Shown here in pieces: positions 13,495 to 20,893 of a stretch of DNA of 64,000 bases. Under the pieces are notes generated by a model. It searched no databases. It was given only the letters and a program-made list of their open reading frames with translations, and had not been told where the DNA came from. Origin of the DNA: Candidatus Eiseniibacteriota bacterium (GTDB taxonomy: Bacteria > Eisenbacteria > RBG-16-71-46); NCBI GenBank assembly GCA_031370785.1, contig JANMQY010000023.1, positions 1 to 64,000 on the forward strand, given 5' to 3'. The translations under genes were made by a program, and so were the position numbers. Numbering within the stretch: the first letter of the stretch is position 1; every line of letters starts with the position of its first letter.

Positions 13495-14663
13495 CGAGGA
13501 GCTTTCGGCCGGTTGCCCAGACTCCATAGCCGCGGCAGCGCACCGAACGCGCGCAGCCGGCCGGGGCGCCACAGCGCCGAGAGGATCTCGAGCGCCAGCC
13601 ACGCCGCATAGATCACGCACACTTCCTCGCGCCACTCCGGGCGCAGGAACTGGGCGAACCACAGCGCGAACAGGCCGAGCGCCTCGTACGCGTGGAAGTT
13701 CAGGTTCGAGAGCAGCACGATGCCGAGCACGCTCTGCAGCAGCGTGAGGAGCAGCTCCATCCGGTGCTCGGCGATCGGGACCGCCGTGATCTGTCCCAGC
13801 GAGAGCGAATAGACGATCGGGATCATCGCGGCCAGCACCGTCCACTGATTGATGTTGGAAGAGACCATGTTCATCAGCGCCATGCCGGCCTTGCCCCGGC
13901 CCTGCGCCCAGTAGAACGTGGTGGTGAACTCCGGGAACTCCGAGAGGAACGGCGCGACCCACTGGACGAACACGAATTGCGAGATGCCGAGCCAGGTCGC
14001 CATCCCGATCATGCTGTGCAGGAACGGACCCGCGCTGAAGTAGAGCGCGATCCCGCCGGCCACGAACATCCCGATGATCACGATCGGACGCCACGGCAGC
14101 CTGAGTCGCAGCACCGCGCGCGGCACGCCGGCCACGTCCTCGATCTCCTCGTGCTGCCGTGGTGGGATGCGCTGCACCAGCGTCAGGTAGGCGGCGTAGA
14201 GCGCGAGCAGCACGCCTGAGTCCACGCAGTCGAGCGTGCCCTTGGCGGTGATCCAGCCGAAGTAGAGGAGCGGCGGCGTCATGCCGATCACCTCGGCCGC
14301 GTGTTCCTCCTCGAGTTCGATCGCGGTCCAGAACCCGGACTCACCGCGCCGCCGGCGCGCGATCGCATGCATGGTCCAGATCATCGGCCAGCCGAGTCCG
14401 GTGAGCAGACGCAGCGCGCCGGTGAAGTTCGCGGTCATGAGCGCCACGTCGCGGTGCCATGCGATCACGGCTTCGACCGCGAATTCGGGCAGCACCTGGA
14501 TCCACGCGAGCAGCGCGAGCGCGAGCCCCTGCGAGACGTAGAACTGTGCCGCCTCGGCGCCCCATGCCACCACGAACGCACTCGCGAGAATCGACGGGAA
14601 GGTCCACACCGCCTGCAGTGCGGCGCGCCGCGCTTCCTCGGGCGGAATCTCGAGCGGGGTCAC
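13491..14663 (-). CDS. Sodium/calcium-exchanger-related membrane protein (CaCA superfamily); start uncertain
   Basis: Two alpha-repeat-like motifs (LPEFAVE...ANFTGA and SEFPEF...SSNINQWT) in a multi-TM protein. Confidence 0.7.
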   Translation of the reverse strand: MTPLEIPPEEARRAALQAVWTFPSILASAFVVAWGAEAAQFYVSQGLALALLAWIQVLPEFAVEAVIAWHRDVALMTANFTGALRLLTGLGWPMIWTMHAIARRRRGESGFWTAIELEEEHAAEVIGMTPPLLYFGWITAKGTLDCVDSGVLLALYAAYLTLVQRIPPRQHEEIEDVAGVPRAVLRLRLPWRPIVIIGMFVAGGIALYFSAGPFLHSMIGMATWLGISQFVFVQWVAPFLSEFPEFTTTFYWAQGRGKAGMALMNMVSSNINQWTVLAAMIPIVYSLSLGQITAVPIAEHRMELLLTLLQSVLGIVLLSNLNFHAYEALGLFALWFAQFLRPEWREEVCVIYAAWLALEILSALWRPGRLRAFGALPRLWSLGNRPKAPR

Positions 14664-14746
14664 GCGGGGAGCCGGGTCGGCCGCACGCGGCGATTCGCGC
14701 CGGGTCGCGCGAGAAGGAGAGGGTCGGCAGCGTTGGTGACGGGCAC
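14660..14746 (-). CDS. Putative 28-aa upstream ORF coupled to the exchanger gene
   Basis: SD GGAGGT then GTG gives MPVTNAADPLLLARPGANRRVRPTRLPA*. Its TGA overlaps the exchanger GTG (GTGA). Confidence 0.3.
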   Translation of the reverse strand: MPVTNAADPLLLARPGANRRVRPTRLPA

Positions 14747-15044
14747 GAGACCTCCGGCGCGAAGGGTGAACGACTTGTGAGCTGAAAAGCGCGCCGATAC
14801 TCTGGCACGCGGATGAGAGCGTCAAGATCGAAGCGACAGACGGCACTGGCGTCGCTGCTGGTTTTCGCCGCGGCGATGGCCGCGCGCGACCCGAGCTCCG
14901 CGGCGCTGGCCCGGACGCGCCGGTCGCGCGAGGGCACGCCGGCCCGCGCCGACGCTCGTGCGCGCTCAGCGTGCGAGCGGGTATGGCGCGAAGCCGACAT
15001 GGCCGGGACCTCCGCCGCCCGGGCGGCATCGAAAACGCGCCATG

Positions 15045-15073
15045 TTGACCGACCGAACGCTCCCGCCTAGGAT
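15045..15073 (+). promoter_or_regulatory. Sigma-70-type promoter of the bsh operon
   Basis: TTGACC (15045-50), 17 nt spacer, TAGGAT (15068-73). Confidence 0.65.
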
Positions 15074-15083
15074 GCTGCCTTCC

Positions 15084-15152
15084 ATGCTCATTCCGTGTTG
15101 CGCCGTTCTTCACGGCGAGGCCCCGCTCCGGTGTCGGAAGCCGTGCGCCTGA
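15084..15152 (+). CDS. Putative Cys-rich leader peptide MLIPCCAVLHGEAPLRCRKPCA
   Basis: ATG lies 10 nt after the -10 box; 4 of 22 residues are Cys; the stop overlaps the bshC ATG (TGATG). Confidence 0.45.
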   Translation: MLIPCCAVLHGEAPLRCRKPCA

Positions 15153-16768
15153 TGAGCCGTTCGCTCGCCGTGCGCGCGCGGGTCCGCCCACGCCTCGAGC
15201 CTCCGCTCGATCGCTTCCACGACGCTCTGATCGACGATCTCACCGCCGCCGGGCCGCTGTCCCGCGAGCGCTTCACCACGGCATGGAGCGACACCGACGC
15301 GCTGCGCAGGCTGGCCGAGTCCAAGCGCGCGCCGCTCCCGCCCGCTCTCGCGGCCGCCATGGTCGAACAGCATCGCAGGCTCGGGGCGTCGCCTGAGTCC
15401 CTCCGCGGGCTCGAGCGTCTGGCGCGCGGCGAAGCGGTGTGCGCGGTCGCGGGGCAGCAACCGGCGCCGCTCGGCGGGCCGCTCTACTCCCTGCACAAGA
15501 CCGCGGCCACGGTCGGCCTCGCGGCTTCGATCGAGGCGCGCACCGGCGTGCGATGCGTGCCGATGTTCTGGGTGCACGGCGAGGACTCCGATTTCAACGA
15601 GATCCGGGGCGCGACGATCGCGGACGCTTCGCTGGCGCTGCACGAACTCGCGCTGCCCGAAAGCGCCCATCGCGGAGGAGAGCTGGTGGGCAACGTCGCG
15701 CTGGCCCCCCTCGACGCGCTCGAGCGCGAGGCGCTGGCGCTGTGGAGCGGGCTGCCCGGTGCGCCGGAGGTTGCCGCGCTGCTCGAGAGCGCGCGCGGCG
15801 CGGCGCGCGATCTCGGCGAAGCGAGCGCGGCGCTGATGCTGCGCCTGTTCGACGGTGCTGGACTCGTGGTCGTGGATCCGAGGTTGCCGGCGTTTCGCGA
15901 TGCGGCGCGCCCGATCCTCGACCGCTACCTCGCGAACGCCGAGGAACTCTCCGCGCACGCGCGCCGCGCAGGTGCGCTGCTTCAGCAGCGCATCGGACGC
16001 CAGCCGCTGAGCGAAGCCTCGCTCGACTCGTTCGTATTCGCGGTGGACGACGGTGTGCGGCGCAAGATCTCGCCGGATGAGGCGCGGGCGCGCGACCGCT
16101 CGCTGCCGCTGTCGCCGAGCGTGGCGCTCAGGCCCGTGGTGCAGGACGGTGTGTTTCCCACGGTCGCGATGGCGTGCGGACCGGGCGAGATCGCGTACCT
16201 CGCCCAGCTGCGCGAGGTGTTCGAAGGCGTGGGCATTCAGCCGGCCTGCCCGGTGGCGCGGCTCAGCGTGACCTGGCTTCCGCCCTCCGCGGTCGAGCTG
16301 CTCGAGGTCTCGGGTGCGGACCCGGCGACCCTCATCGGGAACGTGGATACCGTGCTGCGCACGCTGGCCGAGCGCCAGACACCTGAGGCGGCGCGCGCGG
16401 CGCTGGCCAGCGCGCGTGCCGAAGCCATGCGCGGGCTCGAACGCCTGAGCGAGGCGGCGAAGCGCGTGGATGCGAGCCTCGCGCAGCTGGTCGAGTCGGC
16501 CCGCGGCAAGGTGGAGTTCCAGTACGCGCGCCTCGACGAAGGCATCGCCGGCAAGGTGCGCCAGAAGCTCGAGCGCGTGCACCCGGAATGGCCGCGCCTG
16601 CGCTACTACCTCATGCCCGGCGAGAAGACTCAGGAGCGGCGACTGGCTTCGCTCGAGCCGGTGGCGCGACGCGGGCCCGGTGTGGGCGAAGGTCTGTGCG
16701 AGCTGGCAATCGAGCATGCGACGCGCCTCGCCGAGAAATGCTACGAGCACCTGGTGGTGGACCTGTGA
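15152..16768 (+). CDS. bshC: Bacillithiol biosynthesis cysteine-adding enzyme BshC
   Basis: AGQQ..GGPLYSLHK, FWVHGEDSDFNEI, SPSVALRPVVQD..P, GPGEIAYLAQL, QERR; adjacent to bshB1 and bshA. Confidence 0.88.
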   Translation: MSRSLAVRARVRPRLEPPLDRFHDALIDDLTAAGPLSRERFTTAWSDTDALRRLAESKRAPLPPALAAAMVEQHRRLGASPESLRGLERLARGEAVCAVAGQQPAPLGGPLYSLHKTAATVGLAASIEARTGVRCVPMFWVHGEDSDFNEIRGATIADASLALHELALPESAHRGGELVGNVALAPLDALEREALALWSGLPGAPEVAALLESARGAARDLGEASAALMLRLFDGAGLVVVDPRLPAFRDAARPILDRYLANAEELSAHARRAGALLQQRIGRQPLSEASLDSFVFAVDDGVRRKISPDEARARDRSLPLSPSVALRPVVQDGVFPTVAMACGPGEIAYLAQLREVFEGVGIQPACPVARLSVTWLPPSAVELLEVSGADPATLIGNVDTVLRTLAERQTPEAARAALASARAEAMRGLERLSEAAKRVDASLAQLVESARGKVEFQYARLDEGIAGKVRQKLERVHPEWPRLRYYLMPGEKTQERRLASLEPVARRGPGVGEGLCELAIEHATRLAEKCYEHLVVDL

Positions 16769-17493
16769 GCACGCTGGATGCGGTGTTCTTCGGCGCTCAT
16801 CCGGATGACATCGAGCTGACCTCGGGCGGACTCGCCGCGCTGCTCGCCAGCCACGGCCACCGCGTCGGGCTGGTGGATCTGACGCGGGGCGAGGGCGCGA
16901 GCCGGGGGACCATCGAAGAGCGAAACGCCGAGGCACAGGCCGCGGCGCGACTGCTCGGCGTGACCTCGCGCGAGACCCTCTCGCTCCCGGACCTGGGGCT
17001 GGACCGCTCCGATCGCGCGCAGCTGCGCGCGGTGGTGACCTGCCTGCGCGCGCACACGCCGCGGCTGGTGGTCGCGCCCGGCCGCGACGACGATCACCCA
17101 GACCACGTCGAAGCCCATCACCTGGTGAGTCGCGCGTGCTACCTCGCGGGGCTGGTGCGCTTCGATGCGCCCGGTGCGCGCCATCGGCCCGACCGCGTGC
17201 TCTACGCGCTGTATCGCGGCGCCGCGCGCGCTCACCTGGTGGTGGACGTGAGCGCGGTGTGGGAGCGGCGCGTCGCGGCGCTCGCCGCGCACCGCTCCCA
17301 GCTCGATCCGGCGGCGGGACCGTCGACCTATCTCACCGCTCCGGGGTTTCTCGGCGAGGTCGAGGCGCGCGCGCGGCTGTGGGGCGCCTCGATCGGCGCG
17401 CGCTATGGCGAAGGCTATCGCACGCGCGGCCCGCTCGCGCTCACCGACGCGCGCGCGCTGCTGGCGCCGGTGCTCGACGGGGCGCCGGCTTGA
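16765..17493 (+). CDS. bshB1: GlcNAc-malate deacetylase BshB1 (PIG-L family)
   Basis: GAHPDDIE, DLTRGE, HPDH, HRSQ; GTGA coupling to bshC. Confidence 0.88.
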   Translation: MSTLDAVFFGAHPDDIELTSGGLAALLASHGHRVGLVDLTRGEGASRGTIEERNAEAQAAARLLGVTSRETLSLPDLGLDRSDRAQLRAVVTCLRAHTPRLVVAPGRDDDHPDHVEAHHLVSRACYLAGLVRFDAPGARHRPDRVLYALYRGAARAHLVVDVSAVWERRVAALAAHRSQLDPAAGPSTYLTAPGFLGEVEARARLWGASIGARYGEGYRTRGPLALTDARALLAPVLDGAPA

Positions 17494-18770
17494 AGGCGCG
17501 CGGGACCAGGCGCCGCGCCGGCACCTCGCGCGGCAGCGGCGCGCCGAGCAGGCGGGCACCGAAGACGCGTGCCGCACGCACGGCGAAGGTCGGACGTATG
17601 GCGAAGGTCGCACGCGCGAGCAGGGTCGTGCCGGCGCGCGTGGCCCGCGTGAAGCGGAGGCGCCGGATCGGCATCACCTGCTACTCGCACTTCGGCGGGA
17701 GCGGCGTGGTCGCGACCGAGCTCGGGCTCGCTCTCGCGCGCCGCGGATTCGAAGTGCACTTCATCGCGCACCGGCTTCCGTTCCGGCTGCGCAGCTTCGA
17801 GTCGAATGTGTTCTTCCACGAAGTGATGGCCGCGAACTATCCGGTGTTCGAGCAGGCCCCCGCGAATCTCGCGCTCACCACCAAGATGGTGGAGGTGGTC
17901 GAGAACTACGATCTCGACGTGCTGCACGTCCATTACGCGATGCCGTTCGCGGCCAGCGCGTACCTCGCACGCCAGCTGCTGCTGCCCCGCCAGCTCGGCG
18001 TGGTGACGACCCTGCATGGCACCGACATCACCGTGGTCGGAGTGGAGCCGGCGTTCTTCCGCGTCACCCAGTTCAGCATCCAGTCGAGTGACCGGTTGAC
18101 CGCGGTGAGCCGCTTTCTCAAGGACCGCGCCGAGTCCACCTTCGGAATCACGCGACCGATCGAGGTGATCTACAACTTCGTGGATCCGGAAGTGTTCGCG
18201 CCGCGGCGCCGCGCCGGACTGCGCCTGGCTTCGCCCGACACCCGGATCCTGATGCATGCTTCCAACTTCCGCCCGGTCAAGAATATCCCGACAGTGGTTC
18301 ACGTGTTCGCCGAGGTGCGCAAGCGCCTTCCGTCCAAGCTGGTGATGGTCGGGGACGGCCCGGAGAAGGCGCCGGCCGAGGCGCTGGCGCGCGAGCTGGG
18401 CGTGGAGCGCGACGTGCTGTTCCTCGGGAATCAGGATTGCATGGAGGAATTGCTGCCTCTGGCCGATGTTTTTCTCCTGCCGAGCTCCTCGGAGAGTTTT
18501 GGTCTGGTCGCGCTCGAAGCCATGAGCGCCGAGGTGCCGGTGGTCACGTCGAATGCCGGCGGACTGCCCGAAGTGGTGGAGCACGGTGTCACCGGCTTCC
18601 TCCACGATCCGGAGCACGTCTCCGGCTTCGTCACCTCGGTGATGAAGCTGCTGACCAACGAGCCCCTGCGCCGCACCATGGGTCGGCGCGGTCGTCGCGA
18701 AGCGAAGCGCCGCTTCAGCGTGGACGAGATGGTCGGACGCTACATCCAGGTCTATGACTCGCTGAGTTGA
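17490..18770 (+). CDS. bshA: N-acetyl-alpha-D-glucosaminyl L-malate synthase BshA. Start is TTG 17490, or ATG/GTG up to 17649.
   Basis: IGITCY..GGSGVVATELG, HVHYAMP, TTLHGTDIT, HASNFRPVK, ESFGLVALEAM. Confidence 0.93.
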   Translation: MKARGTRRRAGTSRGSGAPSRRAPKTRAARTAKVGRMAKVARASRVVPARVARVKRRRRIGITCYSHFGGSGVVATELGLALARRGFEVHFIAHRLPFRLRSFESNVFFHEVMAANYPVFEQAPANLALTTKMVEVVENYDLDVLHVHYAMPFAASAYLARQLLLPRQLGVVTTLHGTDITVVGVEPAFFRVTQFSIQSSDRLTAVSRFLKDRAESTFGITRPIEVIYNFVDPEVFAPRRRAGLRLASPDTRILMHASNFRPVKNIPTVVHVFAEVRKRLPSKLVMVGDGPEKAPAEALARELGVERDVLFLGNQDCMEELLPLADVFLLPSSSESFGLVALEAMSAEVPVVTSNAGGLPEVVEHGVTGFLHDPEHVSGFVTSVMKLLTNEPLRRTMGRRGRREAKRRFSVDEMVGRYIQVYDSLS

Positions 18771-18774
18771 GCCC

Positions 18775-19881
18775 ATGCTCGGGAAACGTCGACGACTCGC
18801 GCTGCTTGCCGAAGGTTGCTTCGCCCCGATGGATGCGAAGACCGCCGTCGGCATTCTGCGCTACTGCGAAGGCGAGGTCTCGGCGGTGATCGACTCGACG
18901 CGAGCCGGGCAGACCGCCGCTGCATGCGTCGGGGTGGGCGGCATGGTTCCGGTGGTCGCCGATCTCGCCGGCGCCGCGGCGCGTGGCGCCGACAGCCTGC
19001 TGATCGGCATCGCGCCGCAGGGCGGCGACCTGCCCGCTGCGTGGCGCGACATGGTGCGCGACGCGCTCGGGCGCGGATGGGACGTGCTCTCCGGTCTGCA
19101 CGCGTTCCTCGATGACGATCCCGAGTTCCACGCGCTGGCGGCCGAGCGCGGCGCGCGCATCTTCGACGCGCGACGCCCGCCGCGCGCCCGACATCTCTCG
19201 GCCGGCCGGGCCGCCGCGCTGGACGCACTGGTGGTGCTGACCGTGGGCAGCGACTGCAACGTCGGGAAGATGACCACCACGCTCGAGCTGCGACGCGATC
19301 TGATCGCGCGCGGATTACGCGCCGCGTTCGTCGCGACGGGCCAGACCGGGATCTTTGTCGCCGATCGCGGGGTCGCGGTGGACGCGGTGCCCGCCGACTT
19401 CGTGGCCGGCGCGGTCGAACGCCTGGTGATGGACGCGGCCCGCGACGCCGACATCGTTCTGGTCGAGGGCCAGGGCGCGCTGCACCATCCGGCCTATTCG
19501 GGCGTCACGCTGGCGCTGCTGCACGGCGCCGCGCCTGCCGTGCTGGTGCTGTGTCACCAGGCGGGGCGCGAACGCATCCGGATCTCTGCGGTGATGGGAG
19601 CCGGGCGTCCGATCCCTTCACTCGCGCGGCTGCGCAACGACTACGAGCAGGCCGCGGCATGGGTCGAGCCGGCGAAGGTCGTCGGGCTGTCGCTCAACAC
19701 GCTCGGGCTCGAGGACGCCGCGGCGCGCGAGGCGGTCAGCGGCGGCGCCCGCGAGCTGGGCGTGCCCGCCTGCGATCCGGTGCGCTTTGGTGCGAAGGCG
19801 ATTGCGGATGCAGTGGTCGAAGCGCTGGCCGCGCGGCGGGCAGTGCGTGGAGCGGGGAGGTCGCGTGCGACTTCGGCATGA
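18775..19881 (+). CDS. DUF1611 family P-loop protein (DgcN-like)
   Basis: AKTAVG, IGIAPQGG, GLH, VGSDCNVGKMTT, ATGQTG, EGQG..HPAYS. Confidence 0.88.
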   Translation: MLGKRRRLALLAEGCFAPMDAKTAVGILRYCEGEVSAVIDSTRAGQTAAACVGVGGMVPVVADLAGAAARGADSLLIGIAPQGGDLPAAWRDMVRDALGRGWDVLSGLHAFLDDDPEFHALAAERGARIFDARRPPRARHLSAGRAAALDALVVLTVGSDCNVGKMTTTLELRRDLIARGLRAAFVATGQTGIFVADRGVAVDAVPADFVAGAVERLVMDAARDADIVLVEGQGALHHPAYSGVTLALLHGAAPAVLVLCHQAGRERIRISAVMGAGRPIPSLARLRNDYEQAAAWVEPAKVVGLSLNTLGLEDAAAREAVSGGARELGVPACDPVRFGAKAIADAVVEALAARRAVRGAGRSRATSA

Positions 19882-20893
19882 GCCGCTCGAGCTGACCACC
19901 ACCTTCGAGTTCCGGATCGCGCACAGTGGCGCGCGGCTGGGACGCGCCAACACTCTGGTCCGCATCGAGCACGAAGGCATCGAGGGCCTCGGCGAAGCGT
20001 CTCCGGCGCACTACTACGGAGAGAACCGCGCGCTGGTCGAGGCCGCGCTCGAGGCGTGGGCCCCGACGCTGGGCGACGACCCGTTCGCGCTCGACGCGAT
20101 CGAAGCGCGGATGGACGCGGTGCTGCGCGGGAACGGCGCGGCCCACGCGGCAATCGACATGGCGCTCCACGACTGGATCGGCAAGAAGCTGGACCTTCCG
20201 GTATGGAAGCTGCTCGGCCTCGACCCCGCGCGCACCCCGCTGTCGTGCGTCACACTCGGAATGGCCGCACCCGAGGAGATGGAGCGGAAGCTCGAGAGCG
20301 TGATCGATTTTCCGATCCTCAAGGTGAAGCTCGGCGGTCCCGGCGACGTGGACAATCTCAAGCGTATTCGCTCGCGCTACAAGGGCGTGCTGCGGGTGGA
20401 CGCGAACGCGGCGTGGAACGCGGCCGACGCGATCCGTGTGCTGCGCGCGATCGAGCCGCTCGACATCGAGCTGGTGGAACAGCCGGTCGCACGCGAGGAC
20501 CTGGACGGCCTGGCGCGAGTCAGATCGCGCATCGGCATCCCGGTGTTCGCGGACGAGAGCGCGCACCATCTGGGCGACATCGCGAATCTCGCGAACCGGG
20601 TGGATGGTGTCAATCTCAAGCTCATGAAGTCGGGCGGCCTGCGCGAGACGCTGCGCATGATTCACGCCGCCCACGCGCACGGGCTTCAGGTGATGCTCGG
20701 CTCGATGGTCGAGTCGAGCCTCGCGCTCTCGGCCGCGGCGCAGCTCGCCCCGCTGGTGGATCATCTCGATCTGGATGGCCACTGGCTGCTACAGCACGAC
20801 CCGTTCGCGGGAGCGCCGGCCGAGCGCGGCCGCATCGTGCTCGGGATGCGCCCGGGCCTCGGAGTGCAGTGGGTGGCGGAGGCGCGCGCATGA
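19865..20893 (+). CDS. Dipeptide epimerase / N-acylamino acid racemase (enolase superfamily, MLE subgroup)
   Basis: KVKLG, RVDAN, EQP, ADES, NLKLMKSGG, DLDG. Confidence 0.9.
   Translation: MRLRHEPLELTTTFEFRIAHSGARLGRANTLVRIEHEGIEGLGEASPAHYYGENRALVEAALEAWAPTLGDDPFALDAIEARMDAVLRGNGAAHAAIDMALHDWIGKKLDLPVWKLLGLDPARTPLSCVTLGMAAPEEMERKLESVIDFPILKVKLGGPGDVDNLKRIRSRYKGVLRVDANAAWNAADAIRVLRAIEPLDIELVEQPVAREDLDGLARVRSRIGIPVFADESAHHLGDIANLANRVDGVNLKLMKSGGLRETLRMIHAAHAHGLQVMLGSMVESSLALSAAAQLAPLVDHLDLDGHWLLQHDPFAGAPAERGRIVLGMRPGLGVQWVAEARA

Follow-up and report, generated by a model that had tools for sequence, protein, structure and literature searches.

Why is bshC, the first of three bacillithiol synthesis genes, preceded by a 22-codon ORF with four Cys codons whose stop codon overlaps the start of the gene? 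The locus lies in the window that we analyzed, a 64,000-nucleotide stretch of DNA from a Candidatus Eiseniibacteriota bacterium (genome G000). An earlier note on this DNA proposed that the upstream ORF (uORF) is a cysteine-sensing attenuator.

The uORF and its neighborhood

The promoter, the ATG, the 4-Cys ORF of 22 codons, and the TGA/ATG overlap are exactly as the earlier note described them, and we confirmed their coordinates (Table 1). The uORF begins with an ATG at 15084, which is 10 nt past the predicted -10 box, and its peptide is MLIPCCAVLHGEAPLRCRKPCA. Its TGA (15150-15152) overlaps the ATG of bshC by one base. The TTGACC/TAGGAT pair is the sole promoter-like match in 14500-15400 (the mean for 50 shuffles was 0.0). 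The genes behind the uORF are linked to cysteine metabolism: bshC, bshB1, and bshA each score above their NCBIfam cut-offs.

Table 1. Features of the bshC locus, in coordinates of the window.
Feature	Position	Strand	Remarks
-35 box TTGACC	15045..15050	+	predicted
-10 box TAGGAT	15068..15073	+	predicted; 17-nt spacer from the -35 box
near-leaderless uORF, 22 codons	15084..15152	+	+1 frame relative to bshC; frame kept in family and metagenome loci
Cys5-Cys6 (TGT TGC)	15096..15101	+	5' peak of Cys in the family is at codon 5
in-frame GTG	15131..15133	+	possible alternative bshC start; creates the Cys17 codon of the uORF (15132-15134)
Cys21 (TGC)	15144..15146	+	overlaps the GTG at 15143 in the bshC frame
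stop/start junction CTGATG	15149..15154	+	TGA of the uORF; ATG of bshC at 15152
bshC	15152..16768	+	TIGR03998, 266.6 bits (cut-off 265.8); N-termini align from the junction
bshB1	16765..17493	+	TIGR04001, 236.9 bits, over cut-off; its GTG overlaps the bshC stop
bshA	17634..18770	+	TIGR03999, 488.9 bits, over cut-off; start coordinate provisional

G000 contains 82 short intergenic ORFs with near-leaderless ATG starts, and these have 2.9% Cys overall. Just three of the 82 contain four Cys codons, and the bshC uORF is the Cys-densest of the three. Another 4-Cys ORF in G000 was ruled out because it overlaps the N-terminal coding region of the downstream gene, which is presumably a gamma-glutamyltransferase. 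When we looked for a Cys regulon in G000, we found no other convincing Cys-rich near-leaderless uORF.

Some other features of this region are worth recording. Genes that are dgcN-like and dgcA-like (below cut-off) lie 3' of bshA on the same strand (18775-20893), with short or no gaps. A GCATC motif recurs about 15-45 nt 5' of the -35 box (at 15027-15031 here, and in many relatives, by eye). On the minus strand, a Cys-free ORF of 28 codons with an SD-like GGAGG (14660-14746) ends in GTGA, which overlaps the likely start of a divergent gene that is similar to calcium/cation antiporters.

Conservation of the frame and the overlap

BshC is found in 78 of the 89 genomes from the family, and we examined the upstream regions of all 78. 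A promoter with a TA..AT-type -10 box is present at 74 of the 78 loci, and TTGACC or a near match is found at the same spacing in most of them. (One of the -10 boxes, in L076, was found via a relaxed motif; this locus has a frameshift artefact near the start.) At 70 of the 74 promoter-bearing loci, a +1-frame ORF of 15-34 codons stops on the start of bshC. At the other four, the uORF is fused in frame to bshC, and the third frame is never used. The remaining 4 of the 78 loci are masked (L003), reach the end of the contig (L038), or have a full-size upstream gene that overlaps bshC (L015 and L066).

Among 80 metagenome loci, some of which duplicate the family genomes, there were 69 coupled uORFs, 7 fused alleles, one uORF that is disrupted by a repeat, and 3 loci that were unscorable. 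Before counting distinct uORFs, we dropped L003, L038, L015, and L066; L231, L248, and L257 (too short or with no promoter in reach); and duplicate peptides. The disrupted locus, L247, is counted among the 80 and was left out of the uORF statistics. There, expansion of a short tandem repeat breaks the first ORF 5' of bshC, which might be an assembly artefact. The resulting 119 distinct uORFs have 15-35 codons. Coupled uORFs are conserved across 25 genera of Eisenbacteria, and fused alleles are rare (11 of 150 scorable loci from genomes and metagenomes).

Since 70 of the 74 loci with a promoter retain both the frame and the overlap, the bshC uORF is more than a chance ORF. The peptide, on the other hand, is largely free to change: pN/pS, as computed from ungapped pairs of the same length that are not independent of each other, is 0.37/0.46 overall and is close to 1 or higher in 8 of 13 groups defined by genus and length. 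In genus g22, a value of 0.63 points to some purifying selection. The retention of the frame over many changes in length is strong but indirect evidence that the uORF is translated.

The fused alleles look to be derived from uORF-bearing ones by a one-base change of frame. In a quick tree (107 columns; the 7 fused rows from metagenomes were left out), they nest among the uORF-bearing rows, and two of the 11 fused alleles (L047 and L207) still read the old-frame ORF that ends at the junction.

Two metatranscriptome runs from one study contained 0.10 of the words, as long contigs of a relative that are uninformative as to the TSS or expression. Among the differences listed for the relative in one of the runs (18 of 23), 1 lies in the uORF and 12 lie in 14976-15052.

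Outside of the family, just 1 of 26 bshC loci that we sampled from the phylum (in sets of 6 and 20) has a coupled uORF, which speaks against phylum-wide conservation. At 8 of 20 outside loci, bshC instead overlaps a full-size upstream gene (by eye), as it does at two loci from genus g24 within the family. At L015, L066, L027, and L029, the place of the uORF is taken by a full gene, before or overlapping bshC, which resembles the carboxymuconolactone decarboxylase/AhpD family. In other families, the genes directly 5' of bshC at L300, L301, L305, L307, L308, L309, L311, L312, and L313 have similar C-terminal sequences; these genes resemble SAM-dependent methyltransferases, possibly for N-methyl-bacillithiol.

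The start codon of bshC

The earlier note saw no obvious SD before bshC, and this is true of most of the family: GGAG precedes the overlap in 11 of 70 family loci. The junctions of the 119 distinct uORFs are GTGA (81), TTGA (18), CTGA (12), ATGA (7), or GTAA (1). In other words, 88 have a strict RTGA stop/start overlap, and 30 have TTGA or CTGA.

A start of bshC at the upstream GTG at 15131 would, according to the earlier note, undermine its proposal. This start is a live possibility: L002 and L195, which are relatives at the level of the same genus, have an ATG in its place, so bshC may start at 15131. If bshC starts inside the uORF, then the 3' Cys codons would be the other-frame reading of the N-terminus of BshC, and the uORF would mainly unfold or feed an internal start site. 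(There is a weak GAGG at 15117-15120.) In L002 and L195, the ATG is followed by the same seven residues in the bshC frame, and 49 of the 119 uORFs contain an in-frame ATG within their last 10 codons. But the other 70 do not, and yet 118 of the 119 uORFs stop on an NTG codon. Furthermore, the N-termini of BshC align from the junction codon, and 8 of 70 leaders contain a stop codon in the bshC frame. We view an internal start as possible but doubtful. It is compatible with the delivery of ribosomes by the uORF, for which it changes only the site of restart, and also with control by the supply of cysteine.

Enrichment of cysteine codons

The richness in Cys that drew the earlier note's attention extends to the whole set. 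The 119 distinct uORFs contain 199 Cys codons, while 87.9 are expected from shuffles (2.26-fold), and 103 of them contain at least one Cys (62 expected). In the genome set, Cys makes up 7.1% of the uORF frame, 2.5% and 1.4% of the other two frames, and 0.8% of the proteome; out-of-frame bshC sequence already has 4.2% Cys. With one uORF per genus, Cys is about 5-fold more common than in control uORFs (5.4% vs. 1.1%; the Fisher p values had a median of 3.5e-4 and a maximum of 0.009), although the controls are few (4 Cys in 372 codons) and four of them are G000's own candidates. By both comparisons, Cys is enriched specifically at the bshC uORFs.

The excess is concentrated near the ends of the uORF. 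Codons 2-7 have 2.7 times as many Cys as shuffles, while the middle of the uORF has no excess (1.26). Cys is found within codons 2-7 of 59 of the 119 uORFs, versus 5 of 139 leaderless-type genes in G000, and it is at codon 5 in 39 uORFs (28 TGT and 11 TGC). With promoter gaps of 9, 10, or 11 nt, a Cys codon lies at +12 from the ATG in 9/21, 27/74, or 3/10 cases. Because this codon tracks the ATG and not the promoter, a promoter-linked DNA motif is out as its source.

These patterns bring up the possibility that the uORF was kept because its Cys codons, chiefly codon 5, tie the delivery of ribosomes to bshC to the supply of charged tRNA-Cys. While a ribosome waits at codon 5, no other could initiate at the 5' AUG behind it, and the waiting ribosome might drop off or expose the transcript to Rho. 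When cysteine is scarce, less bacillithiol would be made, and cysteine would be spared for protein synthesis, all without an RNA switch. Given the geometry of the stop/start overlap, Cys sensing, if present, would lower expression at low cysteine. Besides the excess over shuffles and controls, several other observations fit. UORFs with the CTG context (a non-canonical start) also have 2.3-fold more Cys than shuffles. TGT accounts for 104 of the 199 Cys codons (52%, versus 11% genome-wide), and it is also preferred in the poly-Cys leaders of cysK that are described below (30/35). N-terminal Cys has a scattered distribution, with 27 changes across many clades in the quick tree of 107 columns, and in 6 of 11 fused alleles, a stop occupies the place of the old-frame Cys codon. 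The uORF from outside of the family (L310) has a Cys as well, at codon 3. Finally, G000 encodes Rho and has a single tRNA-Cys(GCA). (As a separate observation, G000 also has tRNA-SeC.)

Other observations argue against this explanation. When the bshC upstream regions are aligned, as the earlier note had suggested, the overlap is conserved and Cys is enriched, but 16 of the 119 uORFs have no Cys, 47 have just one, and consecutive CC is found in 9 (2.6 expected) and is absent from G001, which is from the same genus. The 3' excess is largely explained by alternative starts. Family-wide, ATGs in the bshC frame are 12-fold enriched within the last 10 codons of the uORF, and wherever a pyrimidine follows NTG in the bshC frame, the uORF frame has a Cys codon. 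These near-stop ATGs give Cys and Trp in a ratio of 38:20, as expected from composition, so a large part of the 3' excess can arise without selection for Cys. In the window, Cys17 and Cys21 both sit on bshC-frame GTGs. Deep dereplication makes the 5' excess borderline: with BshC clustered at 75%, 65%, or 55% identity, p = 0.0005, 0.064, or 0.073, and p = 0.59 when the clusters were single-linkage at 65% and the three final codons were excluded. These tests also overstate independence. Also, Lys, Met, and Ile are enriched over shuffles in the uORFs, and BshC itself has 6 Cys codons. By eye, the Cys counts of the uORFs showed no link to cysK: genomes that have a strong cysK and genomes that lack one have similar counts. 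Overall, it seems unlikely to us that the Cys codons are why the uORF was kept. The same judgment applies to the idea of a structure-free negative cysteine sensor, in which a generic delivery uORF has acquired slowly read TGT codons for Cys, both at codon 5 and close to its stop.

RNA structure, the peptide, and the leaders of cysK

In classical leader-peptide attenuators, a terminator/antiterminator separates the leader ORF from the first gene. At bshC, there is no terminator in 14500-15400 and no gap between the uORF and the gene. More generally, an attenuator of the classical or the mycobacterial poly-Cys type would require that an RNA structure opens when ribosomes stall at Cys codons and that the expression of the bsh genes rises as a result. 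The uORF in the window does contain CC, which is the minimal criterion in the accessible part of Canestrari et al. (10.1101/834739), and poly-Cys attenuators are likely used at cysK in the same family. But the predicted fold of the leader has a z-score of -0.43, and across the 70 family loci that we folded, the mean is +0.32, with just one below -2; these leaders share no conserved stable fold or terminator. A search of the bshC leader against Rfam gave no match at E ≤ 1. The locus has neither a spacer nor an SD that could be sequestered, CC is not conserved (9/119), and in one lineage the uORF is fused to bshC. An attenuator that works by RNA structure is thus very improbable, and the kinship with mycobacterial poly-Cys attenuators that the earlier note suggested finds no support. 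What survives of its proposal is a conserved, coupled uORF that is enriched in Cys, without the design of an attenuator.

The earlier note also considered that the peptide might bind metal. Three Cys positions are common to L001, L194, L002, and L195, including a C-terminal CxxxC, and the pN/pS of genus g22 might be taken as a sign of a functional peptide. However, the family shares no motif or length, and a conserved stretch of the bshC frame also yields the CxxxC when it is read in the other frame. Because the sequence of the peptide is not conserved, metal binding is unlikely, and we give almost no credence to any action of the peptide in trans.

The leaders of cysK in this family show a different arrangement. 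In 9 of the 20 cysK loci that we fetched (L275, L278, L279, L282, L283, L285, L286, L287, and L293, from genera g2 and g21), a near-leaderless ORF of 27-31 codons with 2-5 consecutive Cys codons lies about 200-260 nt upstream. The Cys codons of these leaders are 30 TGT and 5 TGC. The ORF is followed by a conserved hairpin, by a strong terminator-like stem (mostly with a T-rich run next to it), and by an SD-like site before cysK. In predicted folds with a ribosome at the run of Cys codons, the terminator stem is retained, and these folds gave no sign of an antiterminator. The cysK leader is likely to be a classical cysteine attenuator, and we group the cys leader peptides of Actinobacteria, as described in the accessible part of PMC1262725, with these leaders. 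(In G000, the best match to cysK/M scores 343 bits, which is below the cut-off, and lies in an open frame of 509 residues.)

The bshC uORF resembles the cysK leaders in the geometry of its near-leaderless start and in its preference for TGT. In contrast, a fixed run of 2-5 consecutive Cys codons, a hairpin and terminator, a long spacer, and a gene led by an SD are seen only at cysK. To judge from these sequences, near-leaderless uORFs can serve this family for reading cysteine, but the design of the cysK leaders is missing at bshC.

Predicted leaderless starts and coupled uORFs at other genes

With a home-made gene caller, we identified 2697 genes in G000. The numbers of gene-start ATGs at 6, 7, 8, 9, and 10 nt after an intergenic TANNNT are 38, 18, 28, 38, and 16, versus 0-11 for each other gap from 0 to 29 nt. 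Because of this pile-up, leaderless or near-leaderless initiation looks to be common in G000, and the 10-nt gap of the bshC uORF is within the range. The distribution has two peaks, at 6 nt and at 9 nt, which could reflect a longer discriminator or a short leader (about 3 nt).

A scan of G000 turned up other near-leaderless ORFs that end on the start of a gene. We fetched 8 control regions and searched for 4 of them in relatives. Across 93 loci of mutS, ligA, an M32 peptidase, and one other gene, we found 15 similar coupled uORFs. (We take two of these genes to be mutS and ligA based on their N-termini.) They include L094, L104, L118, and L120 for mutS and L164, L165, L167, L168, L176, L183, and L185 for ligA. 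Most of the mutS and ligA loci without a uORF have a full upstream gene or a leaderless start. Where a promoter replaces the upstream gene, the start is leaderless or there is a +1-frame uORF with an overlapping stop. The sequences of these uORFs are unrelated, and they are present where the upstream partner in the operon is missing. This suggests that "placeholder" uORFs arose repeatedly, and we infer that they stand in for the lost partner.

Comparison to known systems

By its predicted architecture, the bshC uORF fits with the mycobacterial class of coupled leaderless small ORFs. In the accessible part of Shell et al. 2015 (PMC4633059), the linkage of these small ORFs is conserved and the peptide is not; they are proposed to deliver ribosomes, with modulation of delivery by the peptide as a speculation. 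The class is also described in the accessible part of a review (PMC12548453). As in PMC4633059, so far as accessible, the bshC uORF is a small ORF, predicted to lie at or near the 5' end of its transcript, with a TGA that overlaps the downstream start, its architecture is kept while its peptide is not, and its length (22 codons here and 15-35 in the family) is within the 5-50 codons used there. It differs from what is described there in that its start mostly lies 9-11 nt past the -10 box, which may leave a few leader bases; its junctions often have TTG or CTG; it is biased towards Cys; and it is found in 25 genera of Eisenbacteria.

The attenuators of the Ms5788A class are leaderless poly-Cys small ORFs, and in the accessible part of 10.1101/834739, the mshA operon is among the loci that they regulate. 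Expression of the class rises upon cysteine limitation, and at Ms5788A, a stable duplex sequesters the downstream SD. The bshC uORF is likewise a near-leaderless ORF with Cys codons before a cysteine-consuming pathway, and the mshA operon is a direct analogue. Compared to that partial description, it lacks a conserved CC, a spacer, and an SD-sequestering duplex, and the sign of any response would be the opposite. In Bacillus and Staphylococcus, the same bsh genes are under transcriptional control by Spx in disulfide stress, and the accessible part of PMC5790435 does not mention a uORF. In a literature search that covered mainly freely accessible papers, we found no report of a uORF before bshC.

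Ribosome delivery as the most probable explanation

We think that the bshC uORF is probably a ribosome-delivery ORF, and that its Cys codons are secondary rather than the reason that it exists. Ribosomes would load at the AUG near the 5' end, translate the uORF, and then begin again on bshC, either at 15152 or at 15131. (We infer both the translation of the uORF and the dependence of bshC on it.) The uORF may have replaced a full-size upstream gene to which the ancestral bshC was coupled. The Cys codons in its 3' half would be, in part, a by-product of alternative start codons for bshC. The Cys at codon 5 may be inherited or weakly selected, and it could lower output when Cys-tRNA is scarce; the surplus Cys codons may tune the output of bshC to the cysteine supply.

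Delivery accounts for the conservation of position, frame, and overlap while the length and the peptide vary. However, delivery alone does not predict the excess of Cys. A fusion would also deliver ribosomes, yet fusions are rare, which hints that the layout with two cistrons is kept for some further reason.

If the bias towards Cys is functional, then the flux of ribosomes along a coupled uORF could serve to sense an amino acid without an RNA switch, and this would lower the expression of a cysteine-consuming pathway. We did not find such logic in the literature that we searched. Together with a poly-Cys attenuator that activates cysK, a throttled bacillithiol pathway would form a two-signed, ribosome-read cysteine circuit. 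As for delivery itself, about 140 orthologous loci keep the frame and the overlap as the peptide drifts, the fusions provide a natural mutant, and the same device is found at mutS and ligA. This suggests how bacteria with many leaderless genes might keep SD-less genes that were once internal to operons translated after rearrangements.
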